From a virus: a stretch of 64,000 bases of DNA. Below the pieces are notes generated by a model. The model was not told the DNA's origin and did not search any database. It saw only the letters and a list, made by a program, of their open reading frames with translations. The translations under genes and the position numbers were made by a program. The stretch is from the UHGV virus genome UHGV-1366919. One strand, written 5' to 3'. Of this stretch, positions 12,724-13,118 are shown piece after piece; within the stretch, counting starts at the first letter, position 1, and every line of letters begins with the position of its first letter.

Positions 12724-13118
12724 TTAACAGGAGAGACGAATCACTCTTTTTATTATGAAAAAATTAGAGGCGGTTGATAAGACCTTTAACATAATGTTGG
12801 GCGTCCTCAAAACCCTTTGATAATTTTTATAATAATTATCTTCCGATATTAGTAACCCTCGGGATCGGTAATCATCAATGCAGCTTTCACCTAAGGTCGG
12901 CGATGATGACCTCCTTAGTCAAGGAACCGTTATCAAGTGATTCCGACCTGCTTTATATAACATCTGGTTATACGCATCATTTACCAGACTCTAGTAAAGA
13001 GAGGCGCCAGATTTTGATTTTAACCTTGATAATATTTTTGGGACCTACATACTTGACTAACCAAACTATTTTATAATATTTTCATTATATCCTAATTATT
13101 TGAAGGTGAACAATATAG
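12724..13118 (-). ncRNA. candidate structured non-coding RNA (possible Y-RNA-like partner of the Ro60 homolog)
   Basis: About 400 nt with no ORF and locally elevated GC. It contains multiple stems (for example aggtcgg...ccgacct and ggcg..cgcc). It is bounded by a terminator at each side and has a CACCTTCAAATAAT...TATAAT promoter-like element at its 5' side in minus sense. Confidence 0.35.
13102..13108 (-). promoter_or_regulatory. conserved element CACCTTCAAATAAT + TATAAT heading the ORF-less 12724-13118 region
   Basis: Near-identical to the 5996 instance over about 18 nt; TATAAT at the appropriate spacing. Confidence 0.4.

Follow-up and report, generated by a model that had tools for sequence, protein, structure and literature searches.

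A 64,000-nt stretch of the virus genome UHGV-1366919 (the window), from a human-gut phage of ~200–210 kb, carries on its minus strand an RNA of about 350 nt that is very probably a structured noncoding RNA. This ORF-less, conserved element, which we call RNA X, occupies positions 12680–13027 including its terminator and is read from 13027 to 12680 (ORF, open reading frame). Four transposon-free genomes of the phage (L002–L005) give the native layout, in which the minus-strand order is tRNA-Glu, ribozyme, RNA X, terminator, promoter-like motif, a gene for a Ro60-like protein and a gene for an RNA ligase. In the window, a transposon lies within the ribozyme and separates RNA X from the tRNA. We are highly confident of this anatomy of transposon, tRNA, ribozyme, RNA X and terminator. 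A preliminary description, made from the sequence alone, had taken positions 12724–13118 for a discrete ORF-less transcription unit with its own promoter-like element and terminator; the unit so described is a chimera of phage RNA and transposon end.

RNA X is conserved and predicted to be structured

The sequence of RNA X was 100% identical in the four transposon-free genomes, and homologues were found at 98–99% identity in L094–L098, at 93% in L092 and L093 and at 73–77% in L088–L090. A near-invariant core (12838–12922, minus strand) contains UAAGGAGGU, an AUCAUC/GAUGAU helix, UCGCC/GGUGA and CCGAU/AUCGG. Compared with L088, the core block (columns 151–266 of alignment A4) was 85% identical, and the ~85-nt sub-core at 12838–12922 showed about five differences, or roughly 95% identity by our own count on that alignment. 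The corresponding values were 71–73% for third codon positions of the two neighboring genes, 55–64% for the peripheral domains of RNA X and 50% for the terminator, and the conservation of the ~85-nt core exceeded even that of first and second codon positions of the neighboring genes.

Covariation was assessed on a nine-sequence alignment with a structure from RNAalifold, using 500 shuffles and slid controls. Overall, 25 base pairs were changed on both sides, compared with 4.3 ± 1.8 in the shuffles (none of the 500 reached 25) and at most eight in the slid controls; RNA X proper accounts for 15 of the 25. Compensatory changes in related phages, which the preliminary description had named as a check on its RNA, were thereby found, with hairpins kept in the homologous regions. 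The stem-loop SL-A (12917–12952, minus strand; GGAAUC-ACUUGAUAAC-GGUUCC with a basal extension) has an invariant loop and a varying stem, whose pairing is kept as GGAAUU/GAUUCC in L094, GGAAUU/GGUUCC in L092 and GGGAUC/GGUCCU in L088. The 5′ domain forms a hairpin (12962–13012, minus strand) of UCUGG/CCAGA, CGC/GCG and an apical UUUAC/GUAAA, and this apical stem carries three to four compensatory pairs, with UUUAC/GUAAA replaced by CUUGU/ACAAG. Further compensated hairpins show AACA/UGUU replaced by UUGUC/GACAA and GAUAAU/AUUAUC by GACUUU/GAGGUC. At the 3′ end, an intrinsic terminator (12678–12725, minus strand) consists of a 17-bp stem followed by a U-run, and its hairpin is retained in L088 at 50% sequence identity with six compensatory pairs. 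One element of the RNAalifold structure, a long-range pairing of GGUUCC with GGGUUACU, was rejected as contradicted by a G-to-A change in the L094 type; the local hairpin GGAAUC/GGUUCC is compatible with all variants.

A protein-coding frame shared by the related genomes, which the preliminary description had set against an RNA gene, was looked for: no reading frame was conserved across the RNA X homologues, and their indels were not multiples of three. The covariance-model search that it had also proposed was run, and RNA X had no Rfam match at gathering scores, at E ≤ 10 (12600–13200) or at E ≤ 5 in the native 5.7-kb neighborhood. Identities as a tmRNA, a hammerhead or an NAD riboswitch were considered and had no Rfam or ARAGORN support. 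No distant homologues were detected by nhmmer and blastn among 100 loci around DUF2828 genes (the family of the Ro60-like gene), by three core patterns in IMG/VR or by blastn against cultured phages, and one core pattern searched against metagenome contigs returned only relatives at 98–99%. RNA X thus appears, as judged from these comparisons, to be a genuine and previously undescribed structured noncoding RNA, known from a single phage clade only.

One nearly identical phage contig, L001 (IMGVR_UViG_3300045988_182131), lacks both window positions 13041–17638 and 12680–12981. The second of these gaps (L001 3940–3960) falls between the imperfect repeats TCTGGTA and TCTAGTA. L001 and the full-length L004 coexist in the same metagenome sample (3300045988). 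The absence in L001 prompted the idea that RNA X might be mobile, but the more distant L088 has RNA X and the break lies in the middle of a hairpin, so deletion between short repeats is the better reading.

A probable theta ribozyme between tRNA-Glu and RNA X

In the native arrangement, tRNA-Glu (UUC; 17708–17780, minus strand) lies directly upstream of the ribozyme and RNA X. The base after its discriminator is the first base of a predicted theta ribozyme (a minimal ribozyme like that of hepatitis delta virus, HDV), whose first 69 nt are at 17639–17707 and whose last 4 nt, the remnant UAUC from the end of the P2 3′ strand, are at 13028–13031, both on the minus strand. In the window, the ribozyme is split by the transposon between these two parts. 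The Rfam model RF02682 (HDV-like, F. prausnitzii type) matched 73 nt of L002 (5531–5603, corresponding to window 17707–17639 plus 13031–13028), immediately after the end of the tRNA at 5530, and the match likewise starts at tRNA +1 in L088 and L092. Scores were 32.3 bits in L002 (E 1.5e-4), 39.7 bits in L088 and 31.1 bits in L092, with E-values from 1.5e-4 to 4.4e-4; none of the three reaches the gathering score of 44, so that membership in the theta/HDV-like family, and with it putative self-cleavage, is likely rather than proven.

The ribozyme core ACCUCUACGUGGU is identical to the RF02682 consensus, the core nucleotides examined (P3/L3 CCUCUACGUGG and GGC in J4/2) equal the consensus and, in the alignment, helices P1 and P4 carry compensatory changes. 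P2, read by eye, is GGUAAUAU/AUAUUAUC; the target duplication of the transposon sits in its 3′ strand, and P2 is cut from eight to four pairs in the window. A role in cutting the 3′ trailers of tRNAs has been proposed for the theta ribozymes of gut phages, and phages with such ribozymes show a 140-fold enrichment of RNA ligases of the DRB0094 family (PMC10879173).

Similar sequences were seen elsewhere. A second theta-like core, CCTTTACGTGGT, lies at 21766–21777 (minus strand), just 3′ of a tRNA-Pro (21795–21866); L002 has a weak HDV-like match at 4353–4408 (E = 1), and in L091 CCTTCACGTGGTT and CCTCCTCGTGGTG occur after tRNAs.

An IS1595-family transposon interrupts the locus

The insertion in the window is a 4,599-bp transposon of the IS1595 family (13040–17638), absent from L001–L005. 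It encodes an IS1595 transposase (15169–16200, minus strand; DDE_Tnp_IS1595; NF033547, 208 bits), ends in perfect 23-bp terminal inverted repeats (13040–13062 and 17616–17638) and is flanked at both ends by the same 8-bp target-site duplication, ATATTTTT, with the left copy at 13032–13039 and the right copy, at 17639–17646, overlapping the first part of the ribozyme. A single copy of ATATTTTT is present in L001 and L002, so that empty as well as filled sites are represented. There are four passenger genes: one whose product has a terminal PEP-CTERM-like motif (13157–14479, minus strand), recognized by a weak, below-threshold Pfam match at the C-terminus, one Xre-type helix-turn-helix gene (14607–14840, plus strand) and two of unknown kind. 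The product of the PEP-CTERM-like gene is described as secreted.

Copies of the transposon with 99.9–100% identity were found at four different sites in bacterial contigs of 0.2–0.55 Mb, each with its own 8-bp duplication. The GC content of the transposon is 33% compared with 40–56% in the chromosomal flanks (51–56% at three of the four sites), and its ends were also found at contig ends of an Akkermansiaceae metagenome-assembled genome. Identical copies with duplications of their own, together with these contig ends, point to a transposon that is active in the likely host and has moved from there into the phage; this host is probably a member of the Akkermansiaceae. Most examined contigs of the phage are without the transposon, and in them the 410 bp preceding the next gene match the window at 100% identity. 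Insertion sites were always AT-rich 8-mers, and the transposase is listed in 765 blocks of the sequence collection.

By placing an outward-facing promoter-like motif near RNA X, the insertion made the region look self-contained. This motif (CACCTTCAAATAAT...TATAAT; 13077–13108, minus strand) was the promoter of the preliminary description, and it lies inside the transposon end, within the 4,599 bp common to all chromosomal copies. Both terminator hairpins reported at the edges of the region are present and far above chance (minus-strand stems of 17 bp at 12725–12686 and 14 bp at 13151–13119 in a hairpin scan), but the right-hand one (13119–13153, minus strand) follows the PEP-CTERM-like gene and is part of the transposon. 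Positions 13040–13118, the promoter-like element and the right terminator are thus all the end of the transposon, and the notion of a discrete unit with its own promoter has to be given up. What survives of the proposed stable RNA gene is a predicted structured, noncoding minus-strand RNA that ends at the left terminator; the right-hand third of the proposed unit was wrong.

Other features of the region fared variously. The near-identical twin of the promoter-like element reported at about 5996 is real: CACCTTCAAATAAT occurs exactly twice in the window, at 13095–13108 and 5989–6002, both on the minus strand. The ORF list also bears out that 12724–13118 holds no ORF of more than 60 codons, the longest being a 57-amino-acid (aa) ORF on the plus strand (12903–13076) that spans the transposon boundary at 13040. 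The GC content, described as visibly raised, is 0.365–0.40 in the region versus 0.31–0.41 in neighboring coding sequence and does not stand out. A 7-bp stem, aggtcgg/ccgacct, does exist at 12894–12900 and 12943–12949, but it is broken in all diverged relatives, which read AGGCAGG, AGGTAGG/CCAACTT and GATAAGG at the aligned positions. For annotation, the case is a caution that a tidy promoter–RNA–terminator unit may be an artifact of a transposon end.

A Ro60-like protein and an RNA ligase downstream of RNA X

The gene after RNA X encodes a Ro60-like RNA-binding protein (11146–12630, minus strand; Pfam DUF2828 and DUF7788) with its ATG at 12630. In an AF2 model (pLDDT 85.5, pTM 0.86), the protein adopts the fold of full-length Ro60, in which a vWA domain comes after a ring of HEAT-like repeats. 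The ten best Foldseek matches of the model in the PDB were full-length Ro60/TROVE chains (E 3e-9 to 8e-8), with that of Thermus phage phiLo among them, and vWA domains follow the Ro60 chains in the list. The protein had no Pfam TROVE match and no PDB sequence match. Homologues were found in 710 cultured phages, among which those of mycobacteriophages (36–38% identity) are annotated 'Ro-like RNA binding protein'. The operon continues with two small ORFs and an ATP-dependent RNA ligase of the DRB0094 type (9705–10718, minus strand; Pfam RNA_ligase plus a PHA02142 OB fold; TIGR02306 E 7e-28), and the pairing of Ro60-like gene and RNA ligase is kept in relatives at ~50% identity.

Directly upstream of the Ro60-like ATG lies a promoter-like motif, CACCTTTTAATATTAAG...AATAAT (12637–12667, minus strand), whose conservation extends to L088 and L092 and which the deletion variant L001 has kept. 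It is one instance of a recurring pattern of CACCT, 7–9 nt, WAAG, a spacer and a TATAAT-like box, with at least eight copies in the window, all on the minus strand (1475–1506, 3447–3477, 5972–6002, 12637–12667, 18162–18192, 19141–19171, 27112–27140 and 55838–55866). The TATAAT-like box usually ends 0–10 nt before a start codon, and the motif family suggests leaderless or near-leaderless mRNAs with an unusual −35-like element. The CACCU of the motif resembles the 3′ end of 16S rRNA, not a Shine–Dalgarno sequence. Two copies of this phage-type motif lie within the transposon, at 13077–13108 and 15138–15168. As the motif between terminator and ATG is conserved and survives the L001 deletion, the downstream operon would have its own start and RNA X would not be its leader.

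Other RNA elements near DUF2828 genes and in the window

The Ro60-like gene is found habitually in RNA-gene-rich regions. A GOLLD RNA lies ~1 kb upstream of the DUF2828 gene in L026 (1582–2027), and other noncoding RNAs near DUF2828 genes were a permuted tmRNA 230 nt upstream and group I introns (loci listed: L018 2522–2773, L088 2509–2758 and L023 5178–5375).

In distant phages, DUF2828 genes were also accompanied by tRNA-like genes of 112–120 nt that ARAGORN did not call (L010 4580–4699 and 4874–4985; L011 4726–4838; L012 6330–6441; L015 4681–4800; L018 4829–4941 and 5090–5203; L022 4578–4696; L024 4527–4640; L027 4860–4978). In these, acceptor stem, D arm and T arm are intact, and there is in addition a conserved insert of ~40 nt, which consists of a hairpin AUAUCUUG..AAAGAUAU followed by ACAGCAAUU and interrupts the anticodon stem after 2–3 nt of its 5′ strand. 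Once the insert is removed, the anticodon arms are perfect again (Thr UGU, Pro UGG, Asn GUU, Arg UCU and Lys UUU), and the genes look like tRNAs carrying a small non-group I intron, located beside RNA-ligase and Ro60-like genes.

A further module, UCUUnnAAAGAYnnnACAGCAAU, often within a stem AAGACNC...GNGUCUU, occurs in the 5′ leaders of ordinary tRNAs of the window (17815–17865 and 18440–18490, minus strand). The same module was present in 40 of the 80 loci L008–L087, either 70–220 nt upstream or just downstream of DUF2828 genes of very different phages, with more than 60 copies on the gene strand versus one on the other; a promoter, a processing signal and a relative of the intron are all candidate identities for it. 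The window also contains a tRNA-Asn(GUU)-like gene of 93–94 nt (18562–18655, minus strand) with a long variable region of GTTAGTT repeats that is unusual for tRNA-Asn.

Discussion

On balance, we favor a reading in which RNA X is a stable structured noncoding RNA that is cut free by the ribozyme and may serve as a partner of the Ro60-like protein. Ancestrally, RNA X would have had no promoter of its own and would have been the 3′ part of the tRNA-Glu transcript. The theta ribozyme would cut right after the tRNA, leaving the latter with a 2′,3′-cyclic phosphate, as expected from the known chemistry of the family, and releasing a 5′-hydroxyl RNA of ~420 nt that comprises ribozyme and RNA X. Transcription would stop at 12686–12678, where the terminator hairpin would cap the 3′ end before the promoter-like motif of the next operon; with a ribozyme-made 5′ end and a terminator hairpin, the product would be a discrete RNA protected at both ends. 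In the window, the transposon, which brings its own terminators into P2, would sever RNA X from the tRNA transcript. RNA X may be driven instead by the outward motif of the transposon, which lies 50 nt upstream, as suggested solely by the similarity of this motif to that of the phage: over 14 bases it is identical to a motif upstream of a phage gene, and it is followed by TATAAT.

Position and strand make RNA X the obvious candidate partner of the Ro60-like protein, as it ends ~50–55 nt upstream of the Ro60-like ATG on the same strand, within the 4 kb considered for such pairs. Also counted in its favor are the Ro60 fold of the neighboring protein, the YrlA match beside the homologue in mycobacteriophage LeBron, the RNA partners of phiLo Ro60 and of jumbo-phage TROVE proteins, and the enrichment of DRB0094-family ligases in theta-ribozyme phages. 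Whether proximity reflects partnership is doubtful, and we regard the pairing as a tentative suggestion. RNA X might then be a scaffold or gate, as Y RNAs are for Ro60, in an RNA-repair or surveillance module with the ligase and the phage tRNAs. More speculative again, and unlikely on present evidence, is that RNA X represents a new class of Ro60-associated RNA, that is, a large Y RNA analogue with a 5′ end made by a theta ribozyme and no tRNA-like module, handling tRNAs with cyclic-phosphate ends together with the Ro60-like protein and the ligase.

Several observations weigh against the favored reading. The covariation comes from only about five sequence types, with L088 supplying most of it, and the structure was tested on the same alignment from which it was derived; the core never varies, so its fold is putative. 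Folding energy and covariation do not tell the two strands of RNA X apart, and the assignment to the minus strand follows from the U-run of the terminator and from the direction in which the tRNA, the ribozyme and all genes are read. Relatives at ~50% protein identity carry a tRNA or a plain terminator in place of RNA X, and L001 has deleted 301 bp of RNA X with the Ro60-like gene intact. Neither Y_RNA (RF00019) nor YrlA (RF02553) matched in 12600–13200 (E ≤ 10) or in the native 5.7-kb neighborhood (E ≤ 5); as a control, the same covariance search detected YrlA beside the homologue in mycobacteriophage LeBron (E 2.7e-6, 125 nt downstream, same strand). The pairing GGUCGGA...CUUGACUA was considered as a Ro-binding helix and rejected, the relatives reading GGCAGGA, GGUAGGA and AUAAGGG, and the invariant UCGGAAG of RNA X does not fit the Ro-binding motif. 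No T-arm or D-arm was found, with neither a match to tRNA models (E ≤ 10) nor a T-loop sequence in RNA X, and at ~350 nt RNA X is three times longer than Y RNAs, which measure 80–130 nt. On its sequence, RNA X thus has none of the intrinsic features of a Y RNA and is best classed with noncoding RNAs encoded next to Ro60-like genes of phages rather than with the Y RNA family.

RNA X could instead be a structured 3′ trailer of the tRNA operon that blocks read-through and protects the end, with no role in trans. Its location between the tRNA–ribozyme pair and a terminator fits this, as do peripheral hairpins that evolve faster than third codon positions and the dispensability of RNA X in L001 and in those relatives that have a tRNA or plain terminator there. 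A terminator alone would suffice for such a task, however, and the conservation of the ~85-nt core above first and second codon positions calls for a sequence-specific function, which leaves the trailer a serious but rather unlikely alternative. We consider it a long shot that RNA X is a cis-regulatory leader, either riboswitch-like or an attenuator sensing a protein or tRNA, that gates read-through into the Ro60-like/ligase operon. A long structured element with a terminator 55 nt before the ATG would suit a leader, and many distant DUF2828 loci carry a conserved motif 70–220 nt before the gene. Nevertheless, the conserved promoter-like motif lies between terminator and ATG and is kept in the deletion variant, no anti-terminator pairing covaries, the terminator of L088 has been replaced wholesale with no matching change upstream, and no riboswitch or T-box family matched the region (E ≤ 10) or the native neighborhood (E ≤ 5).

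A different job in trans is also improbable, whether as a decoy or sponge that would occupy ribosomes via UAAGGAGGU or, for instance, an anticodon nuclease of the host, or as a modulator of the ribozyme. The idea draws on the invariant, 9-nt, Shine–Dalgarno-like UAAGGAGGU, in a genome whose starts mostly lie a few bases after a TATAAT-like box, and on the invariant loop ACUUGAUAAC, which is complementary to UUAUCAAG, overlapping the P2 3′ strand of the ribozyme. These are sequence resemblances only, with no match to a known family, and an 8-nt complementarity in an AT-rich RNA of 420 nt is weakly significant (~0.02 per loop by our own rough estimate). That the region encodes a small protein is extremely improbable. 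The candidates are the plus-strand antisense ORF (57 aa in the window, 66 aa in the transposon-free genomes) and a 15-codon minus-strand ORF, ATGATGCGT...TGA, with two synonymous-looking changes in L092; yet the former shrinks to 29 aa in L092, gives way to a different ORF in L088 and has no Pfam match, and the latter is frame-shifted and stopped in L088.

If RNA X does represent a new class of Ro60-associated RNA, ribozyme-based tRNA maturation would be tied to a Ro60/ligase module, and the cyclic-phosphate ends would be the ribozyme's own product. The presence of a theta ribozyme, an attached long RNA and the enriched ligase family on one line of transcription makes the proposed link between ribozyme-made tRNA ends and RNA repair testable. 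To our knowledge, RNA partners of phage DUF2828 proteins are known for a few only, all of the YrlA type. Hundreds of cultured phages encode DUF2828 proteins, among them Felixounavirus, Listeria P100-like, Staphylococcus and Campylobacter phages, KVP40 and mycobacteriophages, and a conserved non-YrlA RNA beside such a gene is a concrete candidate for testing Ro60-like function in phages.

Each part of the locus has known counterparts. The transposon resembles IS1595 insertion sequences with passengers and outward promoters in its transposase, perfect inverted repeats, 8-bp duplication and many identical copies; it differs from other IS1595 elements in its size of 4.6 kb, its four passengers and its GC content of 33% in hosts of 51–56%. 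Like the theta ribozymes of Kienbeck et al. 2024 (PMC10879173), the ribozyme starts at a tRNA 3′ end, has the same core ACCUCUACGUGGU and occurs in a gut phage with a DRB0094-type ligase. Unlike them, it has sub-gathering scores of 31–40 bits, follows a tRNA-Glu rather than the commoner Met, Sup or Leu, and comes from a phage whose likely host belongs to the Akkermansiaceae rather than the Bacteroidota or Bacillota reported; in addition, a long conserved RNA stays attached downstream, and in the window the ribozyme is split by a transposon. RNA X itself is comparable to GOLLD and ROOL as a multi-domain noncoding RNA in a phage tRNA region, but it is smaller, confined to a single clade and without sequence or covariance-model similarity to them.

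Y RNAs and YrlA carry a conserved motif, GGUCCGA in animals and GNCGAA(N)G in bacteria, in a stem of the 5′ and 3′ ends. RNA X has no conserved version of it and no 5′/3′ terminal stem backed by covariation, and a ribozyme would generate the 5′ end of RNA X. In Thermus phage phiLo, Ro60 binds two Y-like RNAs whose genes lie upstream of its own (PMC12135203); in jumbo phages, TROVE proteins have been portrayed as platforms for RNA repair that have a tRNA-like partner (PMC7824862). With Y RNA/YrlA and with Yrl1 and Yrl2 of phiLo, RNA X shares its place as a noncoding RNA adjoining a Ro60-fold gene on the same strand, in a repair context with a ligase and tRNAs.

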